A stretch of 64,000 nt of DNA from Gemmatimonadota bacterium (GTDB lineage Bacteria > JBHIER01 > G020348925), in contig CP070758.1 in the NCBI GenBank assembly GCA_020348925.1, forward strand, positions 762,469 to 826,468. Reading direction: 5' to 3'. The notes under the pieces were generated by a model. The model made no database searches and was not told the origin of the DNA. It saw only the letters and a program-made list of their open reading frames with translations. The stretch's first letter is position 1; every line of letters starts with the position of its first letter. Both the position numbers and the translations under genes were made by a program. This document shows positions 1 through 49,261 of this stretch, one piece after another.

Positions 1-701
1 AACACAGCGTTTCCCAGAGTCAGTGGTAGTTGTGGTATTACGAGCAATATTAGAGCTGAACCCAGGAGATTCAAGCGAGGAAGGGTAATATTCAAGGTAT
101 GATTACTGTGAGACAATTCTGAAATCGACGGCAAATAGAGAAGGCTGAATATCAAACCCAGTACCATGAGCACCAATGAACAGGGAAAACGTTTCCATCT
201 CCATTGCGTCCCCGTCACAAAAACGGTTGAAACCACAACCACTCCAAGGCTAAGCTCAGTACTCGTGACAAATTCATTTAGAAAAAGTTTAGAAGTTGTT
301 ATCATTTCCAGCGCTTTCCTCGCCAGTAACAAGCCTATTCCTACTTGCACACCACGTATAATGGGTATAGTAAATAGCTTCTGTAAAAAGTGTAAGCCTT
401 TCATATGAGTTAGGGCTAAGAGTATGATCCCATAAATCAATGCAGCAGTAAAGACAATGTCCATATTGAGACCAGAGGCAATCGTAATTACAGCCATTAC
501 CTTTAGGGGTTGAACTGAGATGGGTACTTTATAGTACCAGCCAGTGAATATATAAACCAAACCCCATAGGGAGAAAATGCCGAATGACGAGAACCGATTG
601 CAGGTAATCAGGACGAAGGCCAACGGTAATGCAATACCCAAGTCACCCAAGGCACCAGCGAACTCACCCCAACCAAAGCTATTTTTTAATTTTGTTGACA
701 T
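1..701 (-). CDS. MOT1-family molybdate/sulfate transporter (partial, runs off window edge)
   Basis: Absent from ORF track. Manual translation from ATG 701 gives MSTKLKNSFGWGEFAGALGDLGIALP...YKVPISVQPLK...IRGVQVGIGL...IPQLPLTLGNAV, which are MOT1 signature motifs. Lies next to mobB/moeA. Confidence 0.85.
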   Translation of the reverse strand, partial: MSTKLKNSFGWGEFAGALGDLGIALPLAFVLITCNRFSSFGIFSLWGLVYIFTGWYYKVPISVQPLKVMAVITIASGLNMDIVFTAALIYGIILLALTHMKGLHFLQKLFTIPIIRGVQVGIGLLLARKALEMITTSKLFLNEFVTSTELSLGVVVVSTVFVTGTQWRWKRFPCSLVLMVLGLIFSLLYLPSISELSHSNHTLNITLPRLNLLGSALILLVIPQLPLTLGNAV

Positions 702-945
702 ACGTCGTTCATATTTTGCTGATTTTTATTTCGCTATAGTAATCAGATAGCATAAATAAATCTTAGATCAATCTACTACTTTTGATCCTCCAAGTCCCAC
801 ATGAGCGTCGAAAAGGCCCCGCATGGTTACATACAGTCTCCGAAAGGAATGAATCCAGCACTATTCCTTCCACTTCTTCCAGATTTTTTCTGAATTTGTG
901 TTAAAGAAAGCAATTCATCACGTATCAAACATTTCAATACCCTTT

Positions 946-1452
946 CTATGGATAGTTGGCTAAAAACTGTTCCTCGATAAAACCCACAAGGCCATTAATA
1001 TTATCAAAATCAAACTGAGGAACATCGATCTCAAGTCGTGAATCACAAACCAAGGCGATTCTTTCACTCTTATTAATATCCAAGGGCTTTGCGTGAACGT
1101 CTGATCGAAAGCACTCTATTTTTGGCTTGTTTTGAGCCTTATATCCTTCTGTTATAACAATATCTACATCTTGAAAAAAATTTTTCACCATCTTGTCTAA
1201 AGGAAGCGAATTCCTTAGTTTTTTAATGAGAGCCAATTTTTTAGACGATGCGATAACCACCGTTTCACTTCCCGCCTGATAGTGTCGATATGTATCCTTC
1301 CCTTCATAATCAATCTCAAATCCATGAACATCATGTTTAATCGTCCCTACTCGGTAGCCCCGCTTCTTGAGTTCACTGACTATTTTTTCAATCAGCGTTG
1401 TCTTCCCGCTGTTCTTCTTACCGACGATGGAAACAACTGGAATTCTCATCAT
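946..1452 (-). CDS. mobB: Molybdopterin-guanine dinucleotide biosynthesis protein B
   Basis: GKKNSGKTT P-loop, IKHDVHGFEID.EGKDT and EGYK motifs. Confidence 0.95.
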   Translation of the reverse strand: MMRIPVVSIVGKKNSGKTTLIEKIVSELKKRGYRVGTIKHDVHGFEIDYEGKDTYRHYQAGSETVVIASSKKLALIKKLRNSLPLDKMVKNFFQDVDIVITEGYKAQNKPKIECFRSDVHAKPLDINKSERIALVCDSRLEIDVPQFDFDNINGLVGFIEEQFLANYP

Positions 1453-2672
1453 TCAAGCACCTCGTTTAGAATCTGGATTTTGACGTTTGAGTCTTTCTCA
1501 ACAAAACTGAGATTTTCAGGCAAAACAATAAGACTATTTGCCTGGCTCATTGACCGTAAAATACCCGACCCCTGAGGACCGCTTGGTGATGTATAATAAA
1601 CTCCGTTATTCACTATAGTCTTAGCTCTGATAAAATGGACTCTTCCTGGATTGATTCGAATATCTTCCATTACAATAGCATTGACAAGAGGTTGTAATCG
1701 GTGTTTTCTTCCGGACATTTTGAAAATTGCTGGTTTGACGAACTGTTCAAAAGAAACCATAGATGAAACAGGATTACCTGGAAGCCCGAAGACGGGTTTC
1801 CCTTTTATGAGTCCAAACGCAAGAGGCTTACCCGGTTTCATGGCCACTTTCCAAAATTTCATCCTTGTTCCAAGTTCGGCCAAGATGTCCTTTACGAGGT
1901 CATAAGCCCCGACTGAAATACCACCTGAAACCAGGATCATATCAGCCATCAATCCAGACAGTAATTTTTCTTTAATGACTTTCGCTTCATCACACGCAAT
2001 ACCTAAATCGATTGGTATTCCCCCGCACTTGAGAATTTGAGTATACAGTATACTGCTGTTGCTATTCCTGATTTTTCCAGGTCTTAACTTATGATCTGGG
2101 TCGACTAATTCATCTCCAGTAGCTAATATGGCCACCTGCGGCATCTTGTTTACCTGCACCCATTTCTTTCCCAGAGAGGCAAGAAGTCCTATTTCGGCCG
2201 GCCTGATCAACACACCTTTCTTAATAACCAGATCACCTTCTCCGATATTTTCTCCGGTCTTTCGGATGTTCGTCCCTTTCCTGATCTCTTTGAGTATTTC
2301 AACCTTACGACCATTGATGTTTGTATTTTCGACCATTATTACGGCATCTGCGCCGCAAGGGATTGGTGCCCCGGTCATTATTCTTATTGCCTGTCCCCTT
2401 GCCAAATTCTTTGTGGCGACATATCCTGCCGGTACATCTTCTATCACATCAAGTTCCACCTTAAGTCCTGAGGGGGATTTTTTTGTATCTGATGCAAGAA
2501 GAGCATAACCGTCCATAGCAGAATTGTCGAAAGGTGGAACATTTGATTGAGCATAAATATCCTCCGCTAATACCCTATCAAGTGAGAATAGGACCTTCAC
2601 TTTTTCTGAGCCTATTTCTTTAACGTTTCTAAGAACAATATGTAAAGCGTCTTTTTTCGAAATCATTGACAT
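1449..2672 (-). CDS. moeA: Molybdopterin molybdotransferase
   Basis: PPFDNSAMDGYA, IMTGAPIP.GADAV, TGDEL, SGGISVG.YD, KPGKP, LPGNP. Confidence 0.97.
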   Translation of the reverse strand: MSMISKKDALHIVLRNVKEIGSEKVKVLFSLDRVLAEDIYAQSNVPPFDNSAMDGYALLASDTKKSPSGLKVELDVIEDVPAGYVATKNLARGQAIRIMTGAPIPCGADAVIMVENTNINGRKVEILKEIRKGTNIRKTGENIGEGDLVIKKGVLIRPAEIGLLASLGKKWVQVNKMPQVAILATGDELVDPDHKLRPGKIRNSNSSILYTQILKCGGIPIDLGIACDEAKVIKEKLLSGLMADMILVSGGISVGAYDLVKDILAELGTRMKFWKVAMKPGKPLAFGLIKGKPVFGLPGNPVSSMVSFEQFVKPAIFKMSGRKHRLQPLVNAIVMEDIRINPGRVHFIRAKTIVNNGVYYTSPSGPQGSGILRSMSQANSLIVLPENLSFVEKDSNVKIQILNEVLE

Positions 2673-2703
2673 ATTTACCCCTTAAACAATTTGTGGTTTA
2701 TAT

Positions 2704-2726
2704 CGATGGGCAATATCTGCCCATCG
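2704..2726. repeat. Perfect 9-bp inverted repeat between modE-like gene and moeA
   Basis: CGATGGGCA-ATATC-TGCCCATCG; function (operator, hairpin or REP-like) unknown. Confidence 0.5.
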
Positions 2727-2764
2727 CTCGGTAAAAAATGTAGGGCGATAACAAATCCTTTTAT

Positions 2765-3097
2765 TTACTCACAAAATATCTTTTGAAACTTTTGATCGAT
2801 AGCGTTGTGTATTCCCTTCTCGAGTGCCCTGTAATTCTGAATAAGTTCCATTGCCTGCTTGCTAAGTTCGGCGCCACCACCACCCTCTCCGCCGATGGTC
2901 CGATACACGAGCGGTACATCTAACCTCATTTCCATCAATTTGATGTAACTTCTCGCACGGCGGTAAGAAATGCCTGTCTTGGCAGCAGCTTCTTTAATTG
3001 AACCCAATTTACCAATAGCTTCCAACAATTGAGCTCTTCCGCTTCCAAAAACTGTTTGACCATTCTTTTCCAGCCAAATTTTCGATTTTACCTTCAT
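2765..3097 (-). CDS. ModE-family winged-helix regulator, DNA-binding domain only
   Basis: KIWLE..FG.GRAQLLEAI...GSI..AA...ISYRRA and GG.GGGGA.LS; no C-terminal mop/TOBE domains. Confidence 0.85.
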   Translation of the reverse strand: MKVKSKIWLEKNGQTVFGSGRAQLLEAIGKLGSIKEAAAKTGISYRRARSYIKLMEMRLDVPLVYRTIGGEGGGGAELSKQAMELIQNYRALEKGIHNAIDQKFQKIFCE

Positions 3098-3195
3098 AAT
3101 TACAACGGACAATCTTTTTTCTTTCAGAATTAGACATACTGAAATTTTAAAAGCACCGTGGCATAAGCCTCTTGCATGTAATTATGTTACTATCG

Positions 3196-3804
3196 CTAGC
3201 TCTCGGATAGCCTTTTCAGATCTTTTTTTATAAAAGATCGTGTGAGACGAGCTAAATGTTTATAAAACTCAGTCTCGGCATTTGCCTCTACAGTGTCAGT
3301 AAATTCTAACACCCAAATAGCCAAATGATTTTCCAAGAAATCTTTCTGTTTTCTAAGATAACGGGTTGTATTGATAGAATCGGAATTCAAAGCCGCTTCG
3401 ATTTCTTTGGAAATGAGAAAGCACATGAACTCTAATTCAATAGCGATATGGTCGGGTGCTTCCTTGAGATCAACCCGTAATCCCTCCTCAGCATATGTGT
3501 ACCATATATCCATTGTTGAGTCACCCATCACTCTTCTCGCATTTTCCAGATAAACAGATCCGTAAGGCGGAGCAAGAAGTTTGTAGGGTCCCAAAAATAG
3601 CTTCGCATAGTCGATTTTAAGTGACTCAACGTTGTTTGTTGTAGGAGAGTTTTTTGAAATTTCAGAATATAAACTCCCTCTCGATGTATCTGATTCCCTG
3701 AGTGTATTGAGTAATCCCTCATCTGGCGAGTAATAGCATTCCGATAGGAGTTTATAAGTATCTCTTCTATGTTCTTCCCGAGATAAGAATTCTTTGCTTT
3801 CCAT
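3196..3804 (-). CDS. arrD: TorD/DmsD-family maturation chaperone (ArrD-like)
   Basis: YAKLFLGP..LLAPPYGSVY, EAPDHIAIELEFM, FL..HL..W; directly downstream of arrA. Confidence 0.9.
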   Translation of the reverse strand: MESKEFLSREEHRRDTYKLLSECYYSPDEGLLNTLRESDTSRGSLYSEISKNSPTTNNVESLKIDYAKLFLGPYKLLAPPYGSVYLENARRVMGDSTMDIWYTYAEEGLRVDLKEAPDHIAIELEFMCFLISKEIEAALNSDSINTTRYLRKQKDFLENHLAIWVLEFTDTVEANAETEFYKHLARLTRSFIKKDLKRLSES

Positions 3805-3940
3805 GTGTTTCGACCTCTACATACGTTCCCATATGACGTGTGAAGTAAAGATGCGCCATACACTCACTCTTTTTCAATGGTACGTTTTTATGACGTGAAC
3901 TCCCAGGTATATTTAGAAACGCAACAATTTTTGAAGCTTT

Positions 3941-6478
3941 TTATACCTTGACTATTTTCACTCGCACAACGCCAAAAAAGGCTGAGCTTCCGCTTAAGCG
4001 CTCATAGTCTGCCGGGATAATATCGTTATTGTTCCCGCCCCTTGGCACCTTACCGAACTCGCTGGCAGCTATTTCTCCATAGGCCCAGTGTCCTTGACCG
4101 TAGCACTTGGCAATCGTTCCAGGCCTCGTACCTTCCCAGAGTTTCGCCGTGCATTCCAACTCCCCTGTTGGTGAGAGAAGCCTGATTCTGTCTCCCGTCT
4201 TCACTCCAAGTCTTGCAGCATCGACCGGATTTATTTTGGCTACATCATCCCATGCCTCATCGCCCGGATCGTGGTCTTTCAATTCTTGGTACCACAAGCA
4301 ATTGGCGGACCTCCCCTCACGGTTAAGTCTGGACTTGTAATCTACAAACACTAATCCATCTTTATTACCGTACATATAAGGTTCTTCATAGTGTGGAACA
4401 AATGCTTTTTCCCCTCTTGCCTCGTAATTACAGGCAGCCAGAACGTCATCAATGGACTTTGCGTGTTTCTCGGCGTGTTTCGCCAGAGCTTCCTTCAGTG
4501 TCTCGCTATAGAACTCAAACTGCTTGGTCTTCGTCTTCATACTTCCCCATCTCTTTCTGAATGGATAAGGATCCGAGTTCCAGACACCGGTCTTTCTGAA
4601 ATCCTCCCAGCCGTTAAATTTATCACCTCCTTGGTATTCAGCTGGATCCCAGAGTTTATGAGTAGCGTGTTTCAGAGCATATAAGGCAAACTCTTTCTCA
4701 TTTGTTGGGATTTTACCAGTTTCTGGGTCTTTATACTCTCGGTAGTGCCTGAGTAAATTATCAAACCCCCTTTCGGCTAATTTCTCCGCTATCAGCCATG
4801 GGATCTCGGTCTCATCTGTCCTCACATCCCATAACGGTTTTATTACTGGTTGATTCATGGTGACGTGGCGATATCCGTTGGCAAATGACTTAACGTAGCC
4901 CCACTTCTCAAACATGTGGTGGTTAGAAGGTAGCACTATATCAGCAAACCATGTAGTCTCTGATGCATTCGTGGTGATATGCACCGAGAAGGGGATTTTA
5001 GACAAAGCCTTGAACCACCTTTCACTCTGAGTACAAGAGAAGGCGAAGTTATTCATATACCCTATTGCGACCCTAATCTCATTAGGATCCTCATTCAGTA
5101 TACCGTCCGCAGCATTGTTCGTTACTACTCCGCCTCCAGACTTACCGGCATTGAGGGCTGGGAACTCCAGTCTCCCCCTGTGGTCTATTTTCTTATGTTT
5201 TATTCCCGCCTGTGCTATTTCATCAAGGAACTTCTTTTCACTCGGGAAGCTTTGAGTATACTCTTTATTCGCCTTCAGGGTTCCTCCAACGTTATCGACT
5301 GAACCTATCAGACCATTCAGGGCATGACATGCCAGAGATGCATATGCTCCCCTGACCTGCATCACCGGTCCACGAGCCACCCATGAGATGGCATGAGGGC
5401 CCGCCTTTCCGTAACCGATAGCGACCCTTCTTATTTGCTCCGCTGGCAGTCCCGTCTTCGCCGCCGCCCACTCAGGAGTTTTGTCCTTCAACTCAATATT
5501 CCACCACTTGACTAGACCATACGTGTATTTTTCCTCAAAATCACTCTCACTTATGGTTTTTCCTGCAGCAAACCTGTTGGTGCCGTCAATGAAATCACCA
5601 ACAAAATCTCTGTTCCATAGACCTTGAACCAATATCTCATGGGCCATAGCACAGGCCAGTGCACCGTCTTCACCAGGCTTGACTGGCAACCATTCGGATG
5701 CTTTCGCTGCCGTCGCCGATAGTCTGGGGTCGACTACTGCCACCTGCGCTCTATCGAGTGCGTCCCCCCACCTGCTCATGTAGTAGGACACCTGCCTGTT
5801 GGCAGCGAGGGGGTCTGCACCCCAGAGGATGATATATCTGGTATTAAGAATGTCATACTGTCGATAGGTCCATTCACCCTCTGTGTAATAAGGCCCAAAC
5901 TTCTCTGCTTCAGCACAAATGGCACTATGGGAGATATTGTTCGGAGAGCCGATGATTTTTGTCATCCGGCTGTAAATGATATCCCTCATGTAGGAATATC
6001 TACCTCTCAACAGTAAATACTTATGGGTTTCGTTGTTTTTCCGGAGTTCCATGATCTTGTCGGCTATCGTGTTAAGAGCCTCATCCCATGTTATAGGCAC
6101 AAATTTCGGATCCTCATTTCTCCCCTTTTTGGGATTGGTCCTCCTCATAGGTGATTTGACTCTGTCTGGGTCATATACTTGCTGGAGACTCATATGTGCC
6201 CTTGGACAGCTCGCGGCTCCATTTACTTTGGAGTTTGGGTTGCCGCGAACTTTGATAGCTCTGCCATCTACAACATAGACCTGCTTAGAGCACCAAGACG
6301 TGCAGCCCTGACAGGTGGTTGGTCTCCATTCGCCTTGTACTTCGTAATCAGCGCGACCAGTTCGTGCGAATGCTCTTAATACCGGTTTAAGCGTGGTGCC
6401 CAATGTCACTGTTGCACCGACCACAGCAGCGTTCTTTAATAAATTTCGGCGAGTCAGTTCTTTTGAACTTTTATACAT
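3941..6478 (-). CDS. arrA: Respiratory arsenate reductase catalytic subunit (Mo-bisPGD, DMSO reductase family)
   Basis: TAT signal TRRNLLK; CQGCTSWC...C 4Fe-4S motif; KGRNEDPKFVPITWDEAL; ArrA-diagnostic RGRY; GSPNNISHSAICAEAEKFG with Mo-ligating Cys; SRLNREGRSAN. Confidence 0.92.
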   Translation of the reverse strand: MYKSSKELTRRNLLKNAAVVGATVTLGTTLKPVLRAFARTGRADYEVQGEWRPTTCQGCTSWCSKQVYVVDGRAIKVRGNPNSKVNGAASCPRAHMSLQQVYDPDRVKSPMRRTNPKKGRNEDPKFVPITWDEALNTIADKIMELRKNNETHKYLLLRGRYSYMRDIIYSRMTKIIGSPNNISHSAICAEAEKFGPYYTEGEWTYRQYDILNTRYIILWGADPLAANRQVSYYMSRWGDALDRAQVAVVDPRLSATAAKASEWLPVKPGEDGALACAMAHEILVQGLWNRDFVGDFIDGTNRFAAGKTISESDFEEKYTYGLVKWWNIELKDKTPEWAAAKTGLPAEQIRRVAIGYGKAGPHAISWVARGPVMQVRGAYASLACHALNGLIGSVDNVGGTLKANKEYTQSFPSEKKFLDEIAQAGIKHKKIDHRGRLEFPALNAGKSGGGVVTNNAADGILNEDPNEIRVAIGYMNNFAFSCTQSERWFKALSKIPFSVHITTNASETTWFADIVLPSNHHMFEKWGYVKSFANGYRHVTMNQPVIKPLWDVRTDETEIPWLIAEKLAERGFDNLLRHYREYKDPETGKIPTNEKEFALYALKHATHKLWDPAEYQGGDKFNGWEDFRKTGVWNSDPYPFRKRWGSMKTKTKQFEFYSETLKEALAKHAEKHAKSIDDVLAACNYEARGEKAFVPHYEEPYMYGNKDGLVFVDYKSRLNREGRSANCLWYQELKDHDPGDEAWDDVAKINPVDAARLGVKTGDRIRLLSPTGELECTAKLWEGTRPGTIAKCYGQGHWAYGEIAASEFGKVPRGGNNNDIIPADYERLSGSSAFFGVVRVKIVKV

Positions 6479-6535
6479 TTTACTTTCACCTCCCGTAGTG
6501 AGACTTGGAAATCTTTCCAGCAGCTATATGTAATT

Positions 6536-7393
6536 CTATACCATGCCCTTCGTTTTTTCATAGGAACCCTGATTAAATTCTCTTACATAAAACACTTTCG
6601 GTTCTGTTCCCAAATCTTCCTTGAGTCGCCGAGAGTTGAATTTACTGAGGATTTGGTTTACCTCGCTATTCGGATCATTCAGATCTCCGAATATTCTTGC
6701 GTCAGTCGGGCAGGCTTCCACACAGTAAGGCAACTCTCCCTTGATAAGCCTGTGATCGCAAAAGGTGCATTTCTCCACAATACCTTTGCGTCGTATCCCT
6801 GTACCAGGGTTGGATAGCTCCCTGGCCGGATTGTAATAAGGAAGAACTCTACCTCTGGCCTTCTGTGTAACCTCGCGAGCAGACGCAGTACCATTTTCAA
6901 TCAGAGGCTTGTCATTGCTCCAGAAACGGTGCTTTCCCTCTTCGTTAAAATGAATTACACCATAGGGGCAGTTGGTGATACAATATCGGCAACCAATGCA
7001 CTTACCCGGACTGTGCATAGTGATGTCACCATCCGCCTTGTGCATGGCTCCCGTTGGGCATCCTTTGACGCACGGAGCCTTCTCGCAGTGATTGCACAGA
7101 GTCGGCATATATTCATATTTAGGATAAGGGAACCGCCCAACAGTCCTGCTGATTCGACTCGCCCAAGCAACATTCTCTTGGACATTGTTCTCGTTCTTAC
7201 AAGCAATCATGCACGCTCCACAACCTACGCACCTTCTGAGGTCGATTACCATTGCCAGTTTCTTGCCTGAAATCGAGCTCTGGGCTTTCGCCGGCCCTCC
7301 TGTAACCGCAGACATTATGCCAGCGGTTCCCCCCAAAACTCCGCCTTTCAGGAAATCTCTCCGGCTGATCTCGTTACCATTCGATTTACTCAT
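6536..7393 (-). CDS. arrB: Arsenate reductase 4x[4Fe-4S] electron-transfer subunit with twin-arginine signal
   Basis: CVGCGAC..AC, CNHC..APC..GC, CIGC.YC...C, CTFC...CVEAC; ArrB-like insertion (PYYNP.R...G...GIVEKC); N-terminus SRRDFLK...AKA. Confidence 0.88.
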   Translation of the reverse strand: MSKSNGNEISRRDFLKGGVLGGTAGIMSAVTGGPAKAQSSISGKKLAMVIDLRRCVGCGACMIACKNENNVQENVAWASRISRTVGRFPYPKYEYMPTLCNHCEKAPCVKGCPTGAMHKADGDITMHSPGKCIGCRYCITNCPYGVIHFNEEGKHRFWSNDKPLIENGTASAREVTQKARGRVLPYYNPARELSNPGTGIRRKGIVEKCTFCDHRLIKGELPYCVEACPTDARIFGDLNDPNSEVNQILSKFNSRRLKEDLGTEPKVFYVREFNQGSYEKTKGMV

Positions 7394-7513
7394 GGTTATT
7401 GTGACTCCCTATTCATGTTGACCTGCAAACGGTTTATTGATAGTGTGTTACATCACATCCCTGTTGGTCAGATTGAACATTAAGTTACCAGGCATAAGTC
7501 CTGCCCAGATGGA

Positions 7514-8650
7514 CTAAGAATGGTGTGGGACTTCTTTCAAAGCCAGTTTCTTTGTCCCCCACATGTACAGTAAAGCTGTTAAGGAAACGGCCAACATCAC
7601 AACAGCAATCTCGGCAAATGAAGCTGAGTATTGTGCCGGAGAGCCATGCTCGAGGTGCTTCAAATCCTCCAACATCGGTTCGATGAGGCCTCCTATGGTG
7701 TAATCCATTCTGGCAGCGAACATTCCTATCAGTACCAGAAAGGATCCAACGAGTATGCCGTTCGGTGTTCTTGTCCTTCGGTTTAAAAAGAGAAATAGTG
7801 GTATTATTAAACCTAAAAGTATCACAATTGCCCAATACCACCAGAGAGATAGGCTGTGCTGATAAGCCGTGCTGTCGACTGTACTGTGCAGCCCCGTAAC
7901 ATCTCTCCAAAACGTGAAAAGAACAGCTACGCCTAAAGCTAAGGCTAAGAACTTGGCAAGAGTTGCTGTCACGCGGCGGAATTCAGTACTCATTTCACTT
8001 TTGCTGACACTAAACTGGAGAGTAGTAACAAATAAGACCAGCGCCGTGCCGATTATTATAGCAATCAGTACAAAGTATACTGGGGCAAAAGCTCCCCCAT
8101 AGAACGGCCTCGCGACAGCAAATCCGAAGACAGCTCCAAGTGTAGAGTGAACCCCTATAGCAGCCAGAGGAGCAATGATGCCAATTACCCGGGCCTTCTT
8201 GACATCGTTTTTATGGAGCAGAGAGAAGTCAATAACCAGCAATACCAAGTAAAGGGTATAGAAGATTACCATCCACCCCAAAGGGGACCCTACGTTGGGA
8301 GATATCAACAGGTAATACGCTTGAATCGGAGAACCGAGGTGAAGGACTATGAGAATGCCTCCGGCAAAAAGGGTGATTATCGCCAGAAATACCGCCCTTT
8401 TTATTATGAGCTCAAATCCCTTTATGCCTAAGGCATGACCAAGTGACACCGTTATACACCCTGCGCTCGCTGCCACAAAAAAGACATACGCGGCAGTAAC
8501 TATGCCCCAAGGTATTTGATCTGTTACTCCCCATGGACCCAGACCTCTAATGAGGGTGTAAACAGCACCCCATATTCCTATCAACAGTCCGACAATTACT
8601 ATCACCATCCATCCGTATAAGATCCGGTTAGAGGATTTTTTCTCTATCAT
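7514..8650 (-). CDS. arrC: NrfD/PsrC-family membrane anchor (ArrC-like quinol oxidase)
   Basis: PWGI...YVFF, HLGSP, SPL.WM, HSTLG..FG..ARP; about 10 hydrophobic segments. Confidence 0.88.
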   Translation of the reverse strand: MIEKKSSNRILYGWMVIVIVGLLIGIWGAVYTLIRGLGPWGVTDQIPWGIVTAAYVFFVAASAGCITVSLGHALGIKGFELIIKRAVFLAIITLFAGGILIVLHLGSPIQAYYLLISPNVGSPLGWMVIFYTLYLVLLVIDFSLLHKNDVKKARVIGIIAPLAAIGVHSTLGAVFGFAVARPFYGGAFAPVYFVLIAIIIGTALVLFVTTLQFSVSKSEMSTEFRRVTATLAKFLALALGVAVLFTFWRDVTGLHSTVDSTAYQHSLSLWWYWAIVILLGLIIPLFLFLNRRTRTPNGILVGSFLVLIGMFAARMDYTIGGLIEPMLEDLKHLEHGSPAQYSASFAEIAVVMLAVSLTALLYMWGTKKLALKEVPHHS

Positions 8651-8766
8651 GGTGTTTACCTCATTTCATCTAATACACCGGATTTGGTGCCAATTCCTTC
8701 TTTCATCTTCACCTCCCCATTTTAGGGAGGCAAAATTCTCATTCTGCCTTTTAACATTCATTTCGT

Positions 8767-9852
8767 TTAGATGTGCATCTGGTATTGAACTCTCAGACCA
8801 AACTCAGTGTCGGCACCGTCCTTTTGCGACATATCAACATCCAGGTTTATCTGAACCCGGTTGTACTTGTCAAAGAAGATATCCACTCCTGGCGTCACCA
8901 GAATATTTCTGGTGTCATCGTCATCAGTGTCTCTTTGGGCATAATCAACCCGAATTGCCGGACGCACAGAATAGATTTTCTCTCCCTCGGACAACTTTAC
9001 GTTGTAACTTCCGAGAAAGACAAATCCCATGAAATTTGCTTCATCGCTGATAATGGGATTAGAACCATAGACGACCTCTGTTTGTACCCATGGACCAGTC
9101 CTAGAGACCTTGTCTTTAATTCCATACTCTAAATCAGCTTCAAAAGCCAGAAAGTTATCGCTTGAACCGTTTTTAGTCGTATCTATGAAACTTTGGTATT
9201 TTGATACGGTTCGATTCGACACACTCGCCCCAAAAGACAAATCTTCGAGAGCACTGAGAACAACTCGACCACCGATCAGCTTTCCGTTGTCGTCGTCACT
9301 CTTTTTGTTATCACCATTGCCATTGAATACTCCAATATAGTATTTGACCTTCTCCACCTGTCCGTGCACCATGGCACCGATATCACGACCGGCGTATAAC
9401 CCGTCTTTGGTAATGATCTGATTGCTGCTCTTCCAGCTACTCCCGATAAGATGATTACCCCTTTCGATAACCATAGTCTTAGTGGTTGAGGTCAGCTCCC
9501 AGAGCGAAAACGGCTTTTTGTACTGGCCGAGCTTGATGTTGAATTTCGGGTCAAGGATTACGTCCACATAGCCGTCCTTGAGCTTTGCCCCTCCTTCTCC
9601 CAGGTCATATTGAACTTTGGCCTTCATTGTGCCCGCGGAGTTTTTATACTCGGCTGCGAGTCTCGCTCTGCGGACATAGAAAGTGTTATTCATATCTTCC
9701 GCCGCTTCCACGTTGGAGGTATGGAACTGTCCATGCAGCCTTCCGGCAAAGGTTACCTTTGACTTTTTAGCGACCACGTTCTCCTGGCCATTTGTGGTTG
9801 ACCATACACATGCGAATACCGTCAAACAAAGCATCAATTTAACCACTCTCAT
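8767..9852 (-). CDS. Outer-membrane porin, phosphate-selective porin OprO/OprP-like
   Basis: Signal peptide; F.VRRARL, LKDGYVD, GQYKKPFS.WEL, GRDIGAM, Y.IGVFNG; C-terminal beta strand RVQYQMHI. Confidence 0.75.
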   Translation of the reverse strand: MRVVKLMLCLTVFACVWSTTNGQENVVAKKSKVTFAGRLHGQFHTSNVEAAEDMNNTFYVRRARLAAEYKNSAGTMKAKVQYDLGEGGAKLKDGYVDVILDPKFNIKLGQYKKPFSLWELTSTTKTMVIERGNHLIGSSWKSSNQIITKDGLYAGRDIGAMVHGQVEKVKYYIGVFNGNGDNKKSDDDNGKLIGGRVVLSALEDLSFGASVSNRTVSKYQSFIDTTKNGSSDNFLAFEADLEYGIKDKVSRTGPWVQTEVVYGSNPIISDEANFMGFVFLGSYNVKLSEGEKIYSVRPAIRVDYAQRDTDDDDTRNILVTPGVDIFFDKYNRVQINLDVDMSQKDGADTEFGLRVQYQMHI

Positions 9853-10045
9853 TTTATACAAACCTCCCCTCTAACAGAAAAACTACTTACGAAAGAATTT
9901 GAAAAGAAAGAAACTCTATATCCATACACACACTACGATCATTACCCCCCTTCCTTCTCGACTTGACCTTTTCCCCTACTCTCTTGAATTTGCTTTTTGA
10001 GCATCACCTCCTTTTAGTTAGTGGAAGTTTTCAACTTCCTTTATA

Positions 10046-11365
10046 CTAAAATAAATATTGCAATCGAGTGTAAATCTCAAACATGTCGTCCGGATTCGGA
10101 TTTGTGGCGGTTTTGTAGAAATCGCCCACCAAAACATAGGCTGTCCCCAACTCGGCCGTCAGGCCACTGGTAAACTTATATCCCACGACCGCATCGAGTT
10201 CAAAGCCCTTATTCCTTTTGCCGTAAGCATTCTCCGCTGTCGAACGGAGAATGCCACCAGCAAGGGTGGTCCAGATCTTCTCTCTCGGTTCGAATCTGGC
10301 TCTCACCTGAAGAGATAAAAGCCCCAAACCACTGTTGTTGAGATCGGCGTTGAGTCCGGCTACGTCCTCATTTAAAGACGTGAAGATCTCCAAGTATCCG
10401 GCATAATTGGGGCCGAGAATTACATGAAAATCCCCACGACTGGTACTTGTTGATCTCTCCTTCTCCCCGGTGGAATGGGTAACTTGAAGACTGAGGGTTG
10501 TCGGGCCGAGGTTCTTGCTGCCTTCGAAGTTAAGTCCCAAACCGGAATTATCGATATCCTTAACACCAACGCTATCGAAGTCTGTTTTACCTTTATTATA
10601 TAGGATGAAACCACTAAGATCAAATCCTGCCCACTCTTTAACGCAGCTTATACCAGCCCATAAGTCTCGGGTTGTTCTATCGAATTTTAAGTTATCGTTG
10701 AGGAAATAAATATATGGGTTCACTTTACATTTACCAGAGAAAGATAGATCGGCTCCGATCTTTAAGAGATCTCTATCGTCAGCCTTCGTGAGATCACCTC
10801 CCTCATTCAATCTGAAGGCCCCAACAGTGAAAGAATGGGTGTTGAATCCGGTTGTGATCTCAACGCCAGCTACATCAAAATCCCAGTCCCAGTCGAAGAG
10901 GTAACCCTTAAATCCATCCATTGGCGATTGAATTCCGACTTTAAGGTTTACTCGGGTATCAGGAATATTGAAATCCAGATATGCATTTCGAGTCTCAATA
11001 TTGACCACGTCCGCGCCCTGCGCACCGCCGTAATTTTCGCCCACACCGTGTGTTCCCACACCCCATATCATATCGCCCACCTCGAAGGCAAGCACACCTT
11101 TAAGGTTTTTATTGGCTTGGCTTGTCAGAGAGAACCTGAACCTCTGGTCAACCAGTATACGTGTCCTCGAATCGGTTTCAGGCCCTATTATTGGACTTGT
11201 GACGAGAGGTGTAGCTGATCCATAATTATAAAACACGGTTCTGATCCTGTACGCCCCTGTGAATGTTGTACCACTAAAATCGTTGCCTCCTTCTTGGGCT
11301 TCTGCTTCCAAGGAAACGGTAGCCCATAAAGTCACAGCCATAATAACGGTAAATAACCCTCGCAT
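10046..11365 (-). CDS. Outer-membrane beta-barrel porin-like protein
   Basis: Signal peptide ending EAEA; DQRFR, FEVGD..WG, NIETRNAYLDF, G.ELDA...Y; ends RLQYLF. Start moved to ATG 11365 after GGAG. Confidence 0.75.
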   Translation of the reverse strand: MRGLFTVIMAVTLWATVSLEAEAQEGGNDFSGTTFTGAYRIRTVFYNYGSATPLVTSPIIGPETDSRTRILVDQRFRFSLTSQANKNLKGVLAFEVGDMIWGVGTHGVGENYGGAQGADVVNIETRNAYLDFNIPDTRVNLKVGIQSPMDGFKGYLFDWDWDFDVAGVEITTGFNTHSFTVGAFRLNEGGDLTKADDRDLLKIGADLSFSGKCKVNPYIYFLNDNLKFDRTTRDLWAGISCVKEWAGFDLSGFILYNKGKTDFDSVGVKDIDNSGLGLNFEGSKNLGPTTLSLQVTHSTGEKERSTSTSRGDFHVILGPNYAGYLEIFTSLNEDVAGLNADLNNSGLGLLSLQVRARFEPREKIWTTLAGGILRSTAENAYGKRNKGFELDAVVGYKFTSGLTAELGTAYVLVGDFYKTATNPNPDDMFEIYTRLQYLF

Positions 11366-11457
11366 CTCTCCAACTTTCAGTAATGTTAAATGTACCGGCT
11401 GGATCCGCATATATTTAGCACGAATCCCCACACCCGAGCATATTAAAATCTGTGCCT

Positions 11458-11916
11458 TTAGGACGCATCTATATATTCCAGTAATCCAGCTATTGTTTGT
11501 CTGAACCTGGAAGAAATGACCGAAGCAACCTCTTTCATAACTATATAACCGATGTGGCTATTTTTATCGAACAAATCTCTAAGCTCTGTTGCTGGCAGTA
11601 CTATGATTTTGGATTTTGTTACTGTGATAGCCGAAGCAGTAAGACTGTAAGGCTCGACGAGGGCAGACCATCCGAACATCTCGCCTTCTTCTATCTTATC
11701 GACTGAAACAGGTCCTGATATGCTTTTCAATTTAGTCTGAATATCAACCTCGCCCTCAATAAGGATGTACAGATACTCCGCTATGTTACCATCGGTAAGA
11801 ATTCTTGTACTGGCACCATAAGTTTCCTCGGAGGCCAGCCCTGCAATACTTGCCAGCTCATCTTTTTCCAGCCCTTGAAAAATAGACACCTTTTTAAGAA
11901 TGTCGACCGGTACCAT
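11458..11916 (-). CDS. Stand-alone cyclic-nucleotide-binding domain protein (no HTH)
   Basis: LKKVSIFQGL, LYILIEGEV, GEMFGWSALV.P..TASA; about 152 aa. Confidence 0.85.
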   Translation of the reverse strand: MVPVDILKKVSIFQGLEKDELASIAGLASEETYGASTRILTDGNIAEYLYILIEGEVDIQTKLKSISGPVSVDKIEEGEMFGWSALVEPYSLTASAITVTKSKIIVLPATELRDLFDKNSHIGYIVMKEVASVISSRFRQTIAGLLEYIDAS

Positions 11917-12197
11917 TTTTTCTTCCGTGTTTCGATTCAATTTAACGTTTTTTATATGCCATGTCTCATCTACAAATCTATAAAAATTGAAACAGAGCAG
12001 GCTTTCACGCAAATCCGAGAAGGAACTTCTAGGGAAGGATTTCTTTGGCAGGAATGACTATTTTGTGGATCCTTATTACTCACCTGCTCGGTCTTTTTTC
12101 TCTTCAGGACTGCAAGAGAAGAAGCGGAATAGGAGATGGAGTTTCTTTCCATAATGTACCCATGTTTAAGCTTTACTGTGAAGCGAAACGTGCATGG

Positions 12198-13142
12198 TCA
12201 ATTAGCACTCAACATTCCCAATCTATTGAAGATATTCTTGGTCTCTGCAATCATCTCCTTAAAAATCTCTTCAACACTTTGTCGTTTTTTAATTAAACCC
12301 GCGATCTGACCCATCATCACCGACCCGCTCACAACATTGCCATCTATAACTGCTGACTGCAATTTTCCAACAGCCAACCTTTCGATCTCCTCACGTGAAG
12401 CTCCATAGGATTCCAACTGTTGGAGTTTCAAGGTAAGATTATTCTTCAGTGCTCTCACTGGTGCATGAATGGATCTTCCTGTCACGGCTGTCGATCTGTC
12501 ATTGGCTCTGATGATAGCCTCTTTGTAATTTTCATGGGCTTTACACTCATGGGCTACAACCAAACGCGTTCCCAACTGTATCCCTTCTGCACCTAATGCG
12601 AACGCTGCAACCAATCCACGTCCATCTCCGATCCCGCCTGCGGCAATAACAGGAATATGCAGTGCATCCACCATTTGTGGAACTAATGCCATTGTTGAGG
12701 TCGTCCCTATGTGTCCCCCCGCTTCTTCTCCCTCAGCTATGACGGCATCGGCACCAGCCCTCTCCAATCTTCTGGCTAAAGCTACTGAGGCCACCACGGG
12801 AATGACAATGATTCCGGCTTTTTTCAAAGACGATATATATTGACTGCAATTTCCGGCCCCAAAGATCAAAACGTGAACCCTCTCCTCGCTGGCAACTTTG
12901 ATGCAGTTCTCAACCTCATCTGCAATGAGGACCAAATTGACCCCAAATTGTCTGTCACTCTTCTCTCTCGTCCTTTTGATCTGTTCCCTCAACTGACCTG
13001 ATGACATGTTTCCGCACGCTAAAACGCCCAGCCCCCCTGCGTCTGAGACCGCTGCTGTCAGATCGGGATCTGATACCCACGTCATCCCTCCCTGAATAAT
13101 GGGATATTTTGTTCCTAACAAATTTGTAATTCTGTTGTTCAC
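12198..13142 (-). CDS. fabK: Enoyl-ACP reductase II / nitronate monooxygenase family
   Basis: YPIIQGGM, EGEEAGGHIG, IAAGGIGDGRG, QLGTR, GS.MMGQIAGLI. Confidence 0.85.
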   Translation of the reverse strand: MNNRITNLLGTKYPIIQGGMTWVSDPDLTAAVSDAGGLGVLACGNMSSGQLREQIKRTREKSDRQFGVNLVLIADEVENCIKVASEERVHVLIFGAGNCSQYISSLKKAGIIVIPVVASVALARRLERAGADAVIAEGEEAGGHIGTTSTMALVPQMVDALHIPVIAAGGIGDGRGLVAAFALGAEGIQLGTRLVVAHECKAHENYKEAIIRANDRSTAVTGRSIHAPVRALKNNLTLKLQQLESYGASREEIERLAVGKLQSAVIDGNVVSGSVMMGQIAGLIKKRQSVEEIFKEMIAETKNIFNRLGMLSAN

Positions 13143-13151
13143 AAGACATAA

Positions 13152-13724
13152 TCACGAATAATTCGCTATACGACCAAACCTCATCTGAAAATCGTTCATC
13201 AAATTTTCGTAATCCCCCTTCACCTTTTCGAATAAGGTGGCATTCTCAATGGCAATGGCGCCTTGCTCAGCCAAAGCAGAGGCATATTCAATTTCATCTG
13301 GTGTAAATTCGTGAGGTACTTCAGTGTTAACCCTAAGAACACCAATAATTCTGTCTTTGACTGTCATAGGAATGCTCAGAATTGAACATATTCCCTCATT
13401 TTTAGCTTCGTTGGGGTATTGAACTCTCAAATCCTCAGTAGCATCAAATACTACTACAGGGTTCCCTTGCATAGCTTCAGCGATGCTCTTATCGGCATCA
13501 ACAGGCCCTTTTTTCAGACAGCTATCACTCAGGTCATGGGAAGCACAAAGTTCAAATTTCTCTTTGGCCTTATCGAACAGTCTTAGGATACATCCTTTGG
13601 CGTTAAGAGCTACAGACGTTCTTTCAGCGATTAACTTTAAGACCTCTTTCGGGTCTAACGTCGATGTAATTGCCTTACTTACTTGCCAAAACGTATGAAA
13701 ATATTTAGTATCACTATCTTCCAA
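13152..13724 (-). CDS. Stand-alone GAF domain protein
   Basis: SILSIPM.VKD.IIGVLRV....PHEF..DEIE...ALAEQGAIAIENA; TTG start after GGAGG. Confidence 0.85.
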   Translation of the reverse strand: MEDSDTKYFHTFWQVSKAITSTLDPKEVLKLIAERTSVALNAKGCILRLFDKAKEKFELCASHDLSDSCLKKGPVDADKSIAEAMQGNPVVVFDATEDLRVQYPNEAKNEGICSILSIPMTVKDRIIGVLRVNTEVPHEFTPDEIEYASALAEQGAIAIENATLFEKVKGDYENLMNDFQMRFGRIANYS

Positions 13725-13807
13725 TATTTATCACCCTCCTAAATTTTCCTTATATCTATCGTTAAGGTATCTCCTATGATATTGTAAAAGACACACAAGG
13801 CCATCCA

Positions 13808-13861
13808 ATTCAAATTTTAATAAATGATGGGAATATTCAAATTTTAATAAATGATGGGAAT
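13808..13861. repeat. Perfect 27-bp tandem duplication
   Basis: ATTCAAATTTTAATAAATGATGGGAAT at 13808-13834 and 13835-13861. Confidence 0.95.
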
Positions 13862-13887
13862 ATCAGTTTTAACCTCATTCTCCAACG

Positions 13888-14361
13888 TCAATGCTTTTCA
13901 TACTTGGAGCGATCCCCTTTTCGGTTTGATCTAATCATATATTCTTTTAAATATTTAACGTTCTCAATGCTCTGACGATACACTTGACAATTACGGCAAT
14001 CTCTGGAATTATGTGGACATAGCGTCTCCTCAATCATCCAACAGGGATTTTTATACTCATGGAATGCAGGACAATTCTCTTTGTTCTTGATAGTACATGG
14101 TTTGAGCTCCCAGCAGGGCAAAAGGGCCATGAGTCGCCGGACCCCCTCTAGATTGAGCCCATCTTCCCGTATGGCCTTGACAATGAAGTCAACTCTCCGA
14201 ATATCCTCTTCCGAAAAGAGTCGATGCTGTGATGTCTTTCTGAAAGGAATGAGCAAACCAGCACGTTCATACTTTCGTAGCGTGGCGTTCGACAAGTCGA
14301 ACCTTTTAGCCACATCTCGGATGGGATATCGGGGTGTGCGAGCATTTAGCTGTTGTTTCAT
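13888..14361 (-). CDS. MerR/HspR-like regulator with C-terminal Cys-rich (two-CW type) domain
   Basis: YPIRDVA....S.ATLRKYERAGLL.P.R....HRLFS..DI, GLNLEGVRR; tail CWELKPC..CPAF..PCW..C..CRNC. Confidence 0.88.
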   Translation of the reverse strand: MKQQLNARTPRYPIRDVAKRFDLSNATLRKYERAGLLIPFRKTSQHRLFSEEDIRRVDFIVKAIREDGLNLEGVRRLMALLPCWELKPCTIKNKENCPAFHEYKNPCWMIEETLCPHNSRDCRNCQVYRQSIENVKYLKEYMIRSNRKGDRSKYEKH

Positions 14362-14420
14362 TGTGCCCTCAGTAATCTCACCGTGAAAATTAGGCCCAAT
14401 ATATCTCTACTAAAAAATAC

Positions 14421-14469
14421 TGTACTTTAGAGTACAATAATAATATATATATTCTTCCTCCTATGTCAA
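14421..14469 (-). promoter_or_regulatory. Sigma70-type promoter for the MerR gene with downstream palindrome
   Basis: Minus strand TTGACA (14469-14464), 16-18 nt, TATATT/TATTAT, then TGTACT-N4-AGTACA at 14421-14436. Confidence 0.55.
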
Positions 14470-14832
14470 GTAAAATATTTTGAAACAGAGAACTTTTATT
14501 TAAGGGATCTATTTATTGGTGAATGTGAGCCTTAATTTCTTTGATTCTTGGGAAAAATATTGACTTCTTCATAACAACCCAGAGTGAAGAATGTCTTTAA
14601 TATTCCTTTATATATAGTGCTCTTCTCTTAAAAATTCCCAGACACAAAATTCTGAATATATACGGCCTATAGTGACGCCACCAAACCTTTGGTACCTCTC
14701 AATGACAGTGTATCTTGCGAATTAGATCCGGACAAGACGGCACTGTTTAAAATCTGCATCATATCCTATCTCTCTGTTTATTGTAATCTATTAGAAGGCG
14801 CACCCAGGAGAAAAATGTCCGCCACTAACTCC

Positions 14833-28359: not shown

Positions 28360-29811
28360 ATGTTACTTCAGCATTTTTTTGTACCCAAGATTGCCCATAG
28401 CTCATATCTGCTTGCCGGTGCCCAGACGTGTGCCATCATTGATCCGCGGCGTGATATCGACGTCTACGTCGATGCGGCCAAATCCCTGGATATGAAGATT
28501 ACGCATATTCTCGAGACCCATCTCCATGCCGATTTTATCTCCGGCCATCTTGACCTCGCCGAAAAGACGGGAGCCACCATTTGCGCTCCGAAATCGGCGG
28601 ACTGTCGTTTCGAACACGTTGACCTGGCAGAAGGTGACACATTCGAGATTGAAGATATGGCGCTTCGTGTTTTTGAGACACCCGGACATACCCCTGAACA
28701 TATCTCGTATGTGGTTACCGATACGTCTCGAGGAGAGGAACCTGTCGGTGTCTTCTGCGGTGACACCCTTTTTGTCGGGGATGTAGGCCGACCAGATCTC
28801 TTTCCGGGGAAGGCGAAGGAACTGGCCTCGAGTCTCTAAGAGAGTCTCCATGAGAAACTTCTCACACTCCCGGATTTTTGTGAAGTCTACCCGGCCCACG
28901 GTGCCGGCTCGCTCTGCGGGAGGGCCATGGGCGCCAAATGGAGAAGCACCATCGGTTATGAGAAAAAGTATAACGCCGCATTGCAGATAAAAGACAGGCA
29001 CAAGTTTATTGAGTCTTTGACGACGAATATGCCCCCGGCTCCCGACCATTTCAACCGCTGCAGCGCCATCAACGGGAAGGGTCCCACTTTGGTTCGCACC
29101 CTGCCGAAATGCGAAGCCCTGGACCCCGCGGATTTCAAGAAAAAAGCGAAGGATAAGAATCTGCGCGTGCTGGACATCCGCGATTATGACGCCTTCGGCG
29201 GTCAACATGTTGAGGGCTCGTACCATATCGACTTCGGCGGCAACTTTGCCACATTCGCCGGCTGGGTGCTGCCCCAGGATGTCGACCTTCTTCTGGTTGC
29301 CCATAACGAACAACAGGCCGAAGATGCCGTTGTGTGGTTGCGACGTGTCGGCATCGACAGGGTCGTCGGCTACCATGACGGCAGCATGTATCAGTGGTCG
29401 AAAGAGGGATCTCACTCGACCCACATTGAACAGGTTTCTGTAGAGGAACTTCACGAGATGGTCGGAGGCGATGAGCCCTTCAGGCTCGTCGACGTCCGAG
29501 CACCTGCGGAGTACGAAAGCTCCCACATCGAGCATGCGATAAACATTCCGGCACCGGAGCTGAGGACCCGTCACAAAGAACTCGATCCAGAAATTCCGAC
29601 AGTTCTCATTTGCAGCACCGGTCACCGCTCGAGCCTGGGATGCAGCATACTCAAGCAGCACGGATTCGGGAAACTTGTCAACACCGCAGGAGGCATGTCG
29701 GGATACAGCGCCGCCGGATACGGCGTTAAGTGTACTATCTGTTCCATCCCCCACGGGCCAAATTTCCTGTGGACGAAATCCAGCATGAAAGGCGTCGCAT
29801 CTCAGCTGTAG
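28360..29811 (+). pseudogene. MBL-fold hydrolase (persulfide dioxygenase-like) fused to two rhodanese domains, interrupted by in-frame TAA at 28837-28839
   Basis: ETHLHADF, TPGHTPEH, GDTLF.GDVGRPDL, then LASSL*ESLHEKLLTLPD..EVYPAHGAGSLCG in the same frame; active rhodanese ICSTGHRS. Confidence 0.85.
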
Positions 29812-44586: not shown

Positions 44587-44657
44587 GATATTGAACGCAA
44601 AACACATTACTACCACGAGTAGGGTGCATACAGAAAAATATCACAGAGGTTTATAAA

Positions 44658-45617: not shown

Positions 45618-45678
45618 TGTATTCTAACACTCTGGAGATTTTTATTCGAAATTATGAAGGAACATAAAGGAGAGCACA

Positions 45679-46713: not shown

Positions 46714-46896
46714 GATTTGTTTGGATCGTTTATCATGGATATTCTGGTTGACCGTAAGTTGAAAATGATGTACCTTTGGTTTTGAAGTCTGCAGAGATAC
46801 AGCGCCTGGAAAGTAGAAGAGTTATACCAACGGAGAACAAAAATCGTTAGGCTCATCGCAATGGTTGTTAAGTCATATTCATAGGAGGTAGTACTC

Positions 46897-47811: not shown

Positions 47812-47841
47812 AAAGAAAGATTACCGGGGAGGTGAATAAGA

Positions 47842-48906: not shown

Positions 48907-48972
48907 AACAGAGGAAGAGAAAGAACATCCGAGTATTTTACGAAAAGTTATTTCGACGGGGGAGAAAATCTC

Positions 48973-49167
48973 ATGAAAGGGAAGACTCTTGTTATTGCCG
49001 TTGTGCTTATTCTGTTCTTGATTGTTTTAGTACAGAATACCCAAATTGTTACGGTAAAGTTGTTTTTCTGGGATATGAGTATGTCTCGAATTATACTCAT
49101 CTTTTTAGCAATGCTTATCGGCTTTGTTGTGGGATACTTTCTTCAAAAATTGAGGCATAAAGGGTAG
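48973..49167 (+). CDS. LapA-family small membrane protein
   Basis: Two hydrophobic segments around QNT..V.V.LFFW. Confidence 0.7.
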   Translation: MKGKTLVIAVVLILFLIVLVQNTQIVTVKLFFWDMSMSRIILIFLAMLIGFVVGYFLQKLRHKG

Positions 49168-49261
49168 AAATCGAAAGTGAAACAATAGAAACGTTACGTT
49201 CATCTGTTATAGAATTTGAATCCTATTACATGATAGAAGACGGAAAATTCTTTTCATAGAT

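Follow-up and report, generated by a model that had tools for sequence, protein, structure and literature searches.

A probable mosaic arsenate reductase locus in a Gemmatimonadota bacterium: a Dehalococcoidia-like arrCBAD module behind a two-CW MerR regulator and a host-lineage porin pair

The first 14,469 nucleotides (nt) of the window, a 64,000-nt stretch of the genome of a Gemmatimonadota bacterium (positions 762469-826468 of sequence C1 of genome G000, a scaffold in which 206 contigs are linked through spacers of 100 N), carry arrCBAD, which encodes what by sequence is a genuine respiratory arsenate reductase (ArrA) together with its partners. The locus is probably a mosaic, in which an arrCBAD module nearest to that of Dehalococcoidia lies within a host-lineage cassette for periplasmic molybdoenzymes, comprising a two-CW MerR regulator and two porins (porin1 and porin2). 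A known enzyme and operon are found here in a new regulatory and envelope setting, and the module swap is visible in comparison with G001, the genome (87% complete) of a sister genus from the same family. The unusual feature is a two-CW MerR, with the palindrome of its family, at the head of a true arr operon; elsewhere the family mostly precedes DsrMK-like, sulfide:quinone oxidoreductase (SQR) or Psr genes.

All 14 genes of the locus are encoded on the minus strand, and each matched the family originally named for it. The catalytic subunit (ArrA, 3941..6478) scored 1148.6 bits against Shewanella ArrA (6cz7) versus 143.3 bits against PsrA (2vpw), and its second-best family, PhsA, reached 253 bits. 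The protein carries a twin-arginine translocation (Tat) signal and the motif RGRY at residues 158-161 (163-166 in strain ANA-3), while H184, C188, K193 and Y205 align with the ANA-3 active-site positions 189, 193, 198 and 210. This motif and these positions mark ArrA according to the available portion of one report, in which ArxA has GRGWG instead (PMC13685797); GRGWG was not found in the window protein, where RGRY occupies that place. An ArxA or Psr identity was ruled out by the motif and the bit scores.

The arr loci used for comparison were the best 80 of 264 confirmed stretches from a genome scan, which yielded 76 loci, many of them short (an upstream region of 8 kb or longer was available for 39). 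Within this set, the nearest ArrA proteins were those of two Dehalococcoidia metagenome-assembled genomes (MAGs), L032 and L023, at 85-87% identity. The window ArrA was paired with L032 at a support of 0.998 in a FastTree phylogeny of 73 rows (70 ArrA of at least 700 residues and 3 Psr-like outgroups, 7 shorter rows having been dropped), and formed a 100/100 clade with L032, L023 and L089 in an IQ-TREE analysis of a 17-row subset. Both trees consist of MAG proteins (74 of 74 scorable with RGRY) and three Psr-like outgroups, with no characterised ArxA or AnrA row. The motif, the bit scores and the grouping with MAG ArrA proteins support ArrA as the identity of the catalytic subunit, as the original prediction had supposed.

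The genes for an Fe-S partner, an anchor and a chaperone all accompany arrA, and tatC is encoded elsewhere in G000. ArrB (6536..7393) has four 4Fe-4S motifs and its own Tat signal, and is 80% identical to the L032 protein. ArrC (7514..8650) is an NrfD-type membrane subunit with 10 predicted transmembrane segments (57-60% to L032 and L051), and ArrD (3196..3804) is a TorD-type chaperone (62-64% to L023 and L032). The gene order C-B-A-D occurred in 11 of the 76 arr loci. A separate B-C-A operon in G000, encoding a Psr/Phs-like enzyme, follows acyl-CoA dehydrogenase and electron transfer flavoprotein-like genes (L118, G000:C1:4530382-4534553).

At the DNA level the locus shows two affinities. The segments 3958-8521 and 3202-3804 matched L032 at 72.6% and 69.8%, respectively, and 8760-11370, which includes both porins and their spacer, matched locus L116 of G001 at 78.6%. 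The join between host-lineage DNA and the Dehalococcoidia-like arr module was placed at 8651..8766, since the G001 match ends at 8760 and the arr-module match begins at 8521. Among 285 open reading frames (ORFs) called on 20 contigs of G001, 193 had a G000 match, and the median identity of the best matches was 72.6%. The two porins (75% and 80%) exceed this median and were therefore considered orthologues of the G001 proteins. No ArrA match was found in G001 at an E-value of 1e-100. In L032, arrT, arrS and arrR (a PhnD-like ArrT, a NarX-like kinase and a NarL-like regulator) lie directly upstream of arrC; two ArrT queries gave no match in G000 at an E-value of 1e-5. The expectation of a different control circuit gains support, as no ArrT homologue was found in G000 and another regulator heads the block.

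The corresponding locus of the sister genus, L116 (on contig C26 of G001), has the order broken two-CW merR, porin1, porin2, B, A, D, mobB, mobA, MOT1, moaA, moeA. It shares with the window the two-CW merR, the porin pair, a Tat-signalled Fe-S subunit, a molybdoenzyme, a TorD protein, mobB, MOT1 and moeA, and it differs in its Psr/Phs-like catalytic subunit, in having no NrfD subunit in the locus, in its broken merR, in a molybdenum cofactor (Moco) riboswitch and in the lack of gaf-fabK-cNMP. Its molybdoenzyme is 27% identical to ArrA, with PhsA as best match and PhsA/PsrA as nearest relatives. The riboswitch (RF01055, 71 bits, L116:8121-8242) precedes mobB, where the window has a modE-type helix-turn-helix (HTH) gene instead; on the arr contig no Moco riboswitch was matched at an E-value of 0.01. 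The merR, mobB, moeA and MOT1 genes of the window are homologues of the similarly placed genes in L116 and not clear orthologues. The comparison suggests that arrCBAD, coming from a Dehalococcoidia-like source without arrTSR, displaced another catalytic module in a host cassette. A second two-CW MerR in G001 lies upstream of TtrB/A-like genes. As a separate observation, the Psr/Phs-like enzyme of L116 (4980-7439), which is encoded without an NrfD partner in the locus, has the N-terminal Fe-S motif C-W-Q-C-x3-D, in which Asp replaces Cys.

The regulator at the head of the block (13888..14361) joins a MerR-type HTH to a C-terminal region with cysteines at positions 83, 89, 97, 107, 115, 122 and 125. 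Its winged-helix part matched GlnR best among solved structures (E 4e-4), and its Cys-rich tail matched none of the solved structures searched. The seven cysteines follow the two-CW pattern and are conserved across 27 aligned homologues. The protein scored 19.9 bits (E 7e-4) against the two-CW domain NF045718, below the cut-off of 35 bits, and meets the family pattern of a MerR HTH, two CW motifs and conserved cysteines. A profile search of representative proteins returned 80 at E-values of 1e-30 or lower. A feature search with the tail, whose best score of 0.76 is a lead only, pointed to a module that MerR proteins, PAS kinases and XRE proteins have in common. No function for the two-CW domain was found in the literature searched, a body that lacks most subscription papers. 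Related proteins of the XRE-two-CW type occurred in 6 of the 76 arr loci; in L042, L043, L046 and L048 (Desulfobacterota), XRE-HTH proteins with a two-CW tail are encoded between arrT and a sigma54 activator on one side and arrA on the other.

The genomic context of the family was surveyed in a metagenome scan, in which the best 80 of 127 stretches gave 79 loci (near-duplicates included), 68 of them with downstream DNA. The first gene after the two-CW merR encoded a NarI-like protein (with a DsrK-like protein) in 36 of these 68, type III SQR in 3, DsrC in 2, a PsrA-like protein in 2 and other products in 25. A redox or sulfur gene was present in 59 of the 79 loci. None contained ArrA, ArrT or Acr3, and ArsR-family genes appeared in only two, 6-8 kb away.

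A sigma70-like promoter (14440..14469, minus strand; TTGACA, 16-18 nt, TATATT/TATTAT) precedes merR and, with 11 of 12 matches, is the top-scoring one of the region. The promoter scan as a whole returned 30 sites versus 27 expected, such that the rank and place of the merR promoter alone are informative. Directly downstream of its -10 box lies an 18-bp palindrome (14420..14437), a candidate repressor-type operator for the two-CW MerR that was predicted with a matrix built from the family. A CTA-N12-TAG dyad was found upstream in 31 of 71 non-redundant two-CW MerR promoters (3.1 expected). The refined 18-bp matrix, with the consensus CTATACTTTAAAGTATAG, reached 8 bits or more in 60 of the 68 promoters used for training versus 4% of shuffles, a fit that is partly by construction. 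The held-out window site scored 13.5 bits, the top score in 1-14832, which lies near the 99th percentile when compared with 1000 shuffles (p ~0.01). A genome-wide regulon drawn from the same matrix was rejected, since the top sites were scattered and many lay inside ORFs.

Porin1 (10046..11365) is an outer-membrane beta-barrel of the DESULF_POR1 or alginate-export-like type, a resemblance seen by sequence; it is rare, with 10 matches. Porin2 (8767..9852) belongs to the OprO/P family (PF07396, 56 bits versus a cut-off of 20.9), has a predicted 16-strand barrel fold (pLDDT 91) and carries 13 conserved Arg/Lys residues. Foldseek ranked OmpM1 and Omp36 above OprP, so that OprP is not singled out. 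The named relatives of porin2 are proteins of Calditrichia and Glassbacteria, no more than a hint that the host is akin to the FCB group, and its distant relatives lie near phoBR, Pit or Na/Pi genes in three of five loci. Two further pairs of porin1 and porin2 come from contigs of matching length, which hints that they may be linked. Porins were present in 7 of the 76 arr loci, with a porin1 homologue in one and porin2 homologues in two. In an acidobacterial locus (L090:6910-9477), arr is followed by distant homologues of porin2 and porin1. A porin2 paralogue in G000 (L295:7348-9190, near G000:C1 position 535347) directly follows a regulator with an excisionase-type HTH and a periplasmic-binding domain, which suggests a porin for molybdenum or tungsten. 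No paper joining arrA, arrB, arrC, porin and outer membrane was found in the literature searched. A porin tied to oxyanion reduction has a precedent in Geobacter ExtI, an outer-membrane porin whose loss, according to the portion of the report available, lowers selenite and tellurite reduction (PMC5877670).

These components suggest the following scheme. Porin2, basic-lined and of the OprO/P type, would let arsenate, and probably molybdate too, across the outer membrane. ArrA and ArrB, both of them Tat-signalled, would act in the periplasm, ArrC would oxidise menaquinol, and electrons would pass through the four ArrB Fe-S clusters to the molybdenum centre of ArrA, where As(V) would be reduced to As(III). 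Cofactor loading may be assisted by ArrD and the tail of MoeA, MobB and MOT1, with moaA and mobA acting from elsewhere in G000, and As(III) inside the cell would be exported by a distant arsR-acr3 locus (G000:201610-203081). Without ArrTSR, arr would most likely be expressed from the upstream promoter under repression by the two-CW MerR, whose family neighbourhoods favour sulfur or redox state over arsenic as the signal.

The locus does not fit its earlier description as nearly self-contained. In addition to moaA, mobA and two further moeA genes, tatC, menA, menG and acr3 are located elsewhere in G000, all four above their cut-offs, as is an ArsC-like gene, below its cut-off, between pstS and pstC of a phosphate ABC operon (L105, G000:C1:1471253-1471624).

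Several observations weigh against the mosaic reading or parts of it. Among the upstream and tail genes only the porins are clear G001 orthologues, because the others fall far below the 72.6% median: the window MerR is 37% identical to the intact G001 copy and 46-47% to fragments of the broken one, and moeA (49%), mobB (53%) and MOT1 (37%) appear in a different order. The tail is about equally close to Dehalococcoidia (moeA 45%, mobB 40-51%). In the set compared, G000 and G001 alone represent the phylum, and the direction proposed for the swap is tentative for that reason. The Chloroflexota group that encloses the window ArrA clade had a support of just 84/87, and both ArrA (1296.5 versus 1600 bits, NF041714) and ArrB (302.3 versus 450 bits, NF041715) fell below the respective NCBIfam cut-offs. 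In terms of regulation, a distance of 5.2 kb, with five genes and gaps of up to 281 nt, separates merR from arrC downstream of it, and arr may be transcribed from a promoter of its own. The candidate operator has a modest score, 39 sites in G000 reach 12 bits with the same matrix, and the two held-out upstream regions of G001 score -0.8 and 4.6. Finally, neither G000 nor G001 yielded MenD, MqnA/D or MqnC, and quinone supply would therefore need salvage or unassembled genes; salvage of menaquinone precursors is suggested for both genomes.

The strongest alternative to the mosaic, though an unlikely one, is chance adjacency. The arrCBAD genes and their molybdenum tail would then form an independent operon behind the porins, merR-gaf-fabK-cNMP and the porins would be separate units of the host, and arr would be constitutive or controlled in trans, for instance by the ArsR encoded at G000:201610, one of five ArsR-family genes in this genome. 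Gaps of 163, 281, 184 and 116 nt within the run are consistent with such an arrangement, and two-CW MerR matches, found in 13 of 50 arr genomes checked (of the 76), formed 20 loci, none of which overlapped an arr locus. Local arsenic regulators are moreover often lacking: of the 39 arr loci with long upstream regions, 25 had ArrT, 9 Acr3 and 9 ArsR, and 13 had none of the three (9 of 29 when both flanks were long). The original prediction had correctly noted the lack of arrSR/arrTSR, ArsR and ars efflux genes, which holds for the entire 17.4-kb contig, and had overestimated how unusual this is. Chance adjacency is opposed by the sister genus, in which the porin pair likewise lies between a two-CW MerR and a molybdenum-reductase module; furthermore, all genes of the run are co-directional, the sole 11/12 promoter is that of merR, and none of the minus-strand gaps received a terminator-like call.

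Less likely than chance adjacency is a broader proposal, in which the two-CW MerR and the porin pair would form a reusable oxyanion-respiration socket of sediment bacteria, accommodating different periplasmic molybdoenzymes and driving a true Arr here. The two-CW domain would sense an As(III)-thiol, thioarsenate or the redox poise linked to the acceptor, and the 17-kb region may be exchangeable cargo of one chromosomal slot. If true, arr would be controlled in a third way, in addition to ArrTSR and ArsR, and the induction by arsenate of the psr operon that follows MROS_1773 in Melioribacter roseus would be accounted for.

Still less probable is the view of the locus as a single arsenic-specific island, with the Cys-rich MerR as a sensor of As(III) or As(V) and with roles in arsenate respiration for gaf, fabK, cNMP and both porins. 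The seven conserved cysteines could bind As(III), four of the six XRE-two-CW proteins in arr loci directly follow arrT and an activator, and both porins have the distant homologues after arr in L090 described above. In M. roseus, MROS_1773, which in the portions of the two reports available is known only as a MerR gene, precedes an arsenate-induced psr operon (PMC5492636, PMC3534657), and the low GC content of the region and the duplication of its flanks at another slot would also suit an island. The neighbours of two-CW MerR genes are nevertheless sulfur and redox genes, ArsR-family genes being rare and distant among them and ArrT and Acr3 lacking. Among the 76 arr loci fabK was present in none, gaf in two, cNMP in one and the complete block in none; none of 26 GAF loci contained fabK, cNMP or the porins. 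In the sister genus the porins accompany a non-Arr enzyme, and key functions are encoded elsewhere in the genome. The single arsenic unit that was originally envisaged is thereby not upheld, as its front end is common to a different enzyme in the sister genus. Of the outcomes that the original prediction named as refuting it, the one in which the upstream genes never accompany arr elsewhere was observed for the block as a whole and not for the porins singly. A conserved merR-gaf-fabK-cNMP-porin-arr block was also sought among 79 MerR, 26 GAF and 5 distant porin2 loci, in addition to the arr loci, many of them short, and was absent from all.

It is very improbable that the contig is an assembly chimera or stems from another organism: although the tetranucleotide correlation of the region with the genome is 0.72 (10th percentile of genome chunks), both contig ends are near-copied on contig 184 and the contig from sediment run X2 that crosses the join extends just 9 bases into porin2, the porin DNA is 79% identical to that of G001, and ClpX, from another contig, shares 81% identity with its G001 counterpart (a partial gene). 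In the other 29 genomes with a match, out of 39 searched, the identity was no higher than 62%, with 50-62% for all those outside the family. The arr stretch is present in seven sediment runs of two studies, and four (X1-X4) were compared in detail. In X1, possibly the source sample and hence not independent, one 8864-nt contig covers 5925-14788, across the join, at an even depth of 12.2. In X2, 30 of 30 bins were covered at a depth of 5-9 (13.9 in one bin), and X3 and X4, from the second study, provided short pieces from either side of the join that show 0-1 differences. The contamination that the original prediction had wished to see examined was not borne out, given the affinity of both the porins and the clpX contig to G001, the even depth and an estimated contamination of 0.52% in a genome 96.3% complete.

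The arr contig measures 17,432 nt and runs from 2.6 kb before the window start to position 14832. The GC content of 1-14469 is 0.440, versus 0.496 in 14933-64000 and 0.497 in the genome, which ranks at the 2.6th percentile among 269 14-kb genome chunks. The region was accordingly described correctly as AT-richer than the remainder of the window on average, but the stretch 44001-55000, with transporter genes and apparent TamB-/BamA-type genes, is equally AT-rich (0.439). On contig 184, two places 4.5 kb apart show 97% identity to the first 277 and the last 92 nt of the arr contig; different cargo lies between them, and the sequence then leads into a tusA-dsrE cluster common to G001. The last stretch (14741..14832) corresponds to G000:C1:4721132-4721223 and is a possible right boundary of a variable slot. 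In L325 (G000:C1:4716394-4724800), both flanks surround a different cargo, followed by a tusA-dsrE2-dsrE cluster as in G001. The flank duplication fits an arr region residing in an exchangeable slot, tempered by the fact that 156 of the 412 contig ends in the G000 assembly have such near-copies. The first 69 nt of the contig resemble the 3' end of a group II intron (26 bits, below the cut-off), run X2 carries the contig-184 letters at 14794 and 14797, and no integrase or transposase was found among the annotated genes of the contig.

The remaining genes complete the block. Between merR and porin1 are genes for a stand-alone GAF protein (13152..13724), a FabK-like flavoprotein (12198..13142) and a stand-alone cyclic nucleotide monophosphate (cNMP)-binding domain without an HTH (11458..11916), which are probably passengers or a later insert; fabK may alternatively be a housekeeping gene. 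FabK scored 420.7 bits, below the TIGR03151 cut-off of 453.1, and was the sole enoyl-ACP reductase candidate found in G000 (FabK itself was not found in G001); FabI was not among the top matches of 10 short-chain dehydrogenases/reductases in G000. The GAF family occurred in 20 of 81 Desulfobacterota genomes, with varied neighbourhoods. Downstream of arrD, a ModE-type protein (2765..3097) consists of the 110-residue HTH part alone, and is followed by MoeA (1449..2672, the third copy in G000), MobB (946..1452) and the molybdate transporter MOT1 (1..701; 413 residues), which is clipped at the window edge and continues to L001:2060. Beyond the window the contig encodes the remainder of MOT1, a CBS protein and cysK. 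Homologues of modE, moeA, mobB or MOT1 were found in 18 of the 76 arr loci. Start codons were revised according to ribosome-binding sites and homologues for cNMP (11916), porin1 (11365), porin2 (9852) and modE (3097). The plus strand of 1-14469 has just three stop-free stretches, of 150-156 codons. The gap between merR and gaf contains an exact 27-nt tandem duplication (13808-13861). Farther along the window, a metallo-beta-lactamase/rhodanese-like gene appears by eye to be split (28360-29811, as 28360-28839 and 28927-29811), near YeeE-like and SulP-like genes.

The enzyme itself is ordinary. In the portions of the reports available, arrA is already described from many uncultured lineages, Chloroflexota among them (PMC10060404), including a putative Chloroflexota case (PMC4959651), and another host adds little. 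The interest of the locus lies in a natural swap experiment, with one family, one porin pair and two catalytic modules. Under the mosaic reading, ArrTSR can be lost from an arr module that is transferred and fitted to an outer-membrane host, and the regulator with its predicted 18-bp operator would give the uncharacterised two-CW domain a concrete target. If arr is under the control of a sulfur or redox sensor, the presence of arrA or its transcripts in sulfidic sediments need not report exposure to arsenic.

Among known systems, the OprP and OprO phosphate porins (2o4v, 4rjw) share with porin2 the PF07396 family, the 16 strands and conserved Arg/Lys residues, with OmpM1 and Omp36 ranking above OprP. 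The MerR regulators GlnR and TnrA (4r4e, 7tea) and the NF045718 proteins resemble the window regulator in the winged-helix head, the paired CW motifs and a palindrome downstream of the -10 box, as for a repressor; they differ in that its Cys-rich tail has no structural match and its NF045718 score is below the cut-off. In Melioribacter roseus, a MerR-family gene, MROS_1773, similarly heads a molybdenum-reductase operon, psrABC, which its authors, in the portions of the reports available, link to arsenate respiration without ArrTSR (PMC5492636, PMC3534657). There the enzyme is Psr/Phs and not Arr, and these portions describe MROS_1773 only as MerR-family. ArrAB of Shewanella sp. ANA-3 (6cz7) and the arrABCD clusters, as documented in the available parts of PMC13685797 and PMC10060404, share the ArrA fold, active-site motif, Fe-S subunit, NrfD anchor and TorD chaperone; the window differs in its C-B-A-D order, its Tat-signalled ArrB, the lack of ArrX/T-S-R, and the porin pair and two-CW MerR upstream. 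The closest counterpart is the Dehalococcoidia arrTSR-arrCBAD arrangement (L032, partially L023, and L051), which has the same order, ArrA identities of 78-87%, ArrB identities of 67-80% and mob/moe/MOT1 genes after arrD. In contrast, L032 has ArrT, a kinase and a regulator in the place where the window has its porins, and it is the host of the window locus that has outer-membrane porins.

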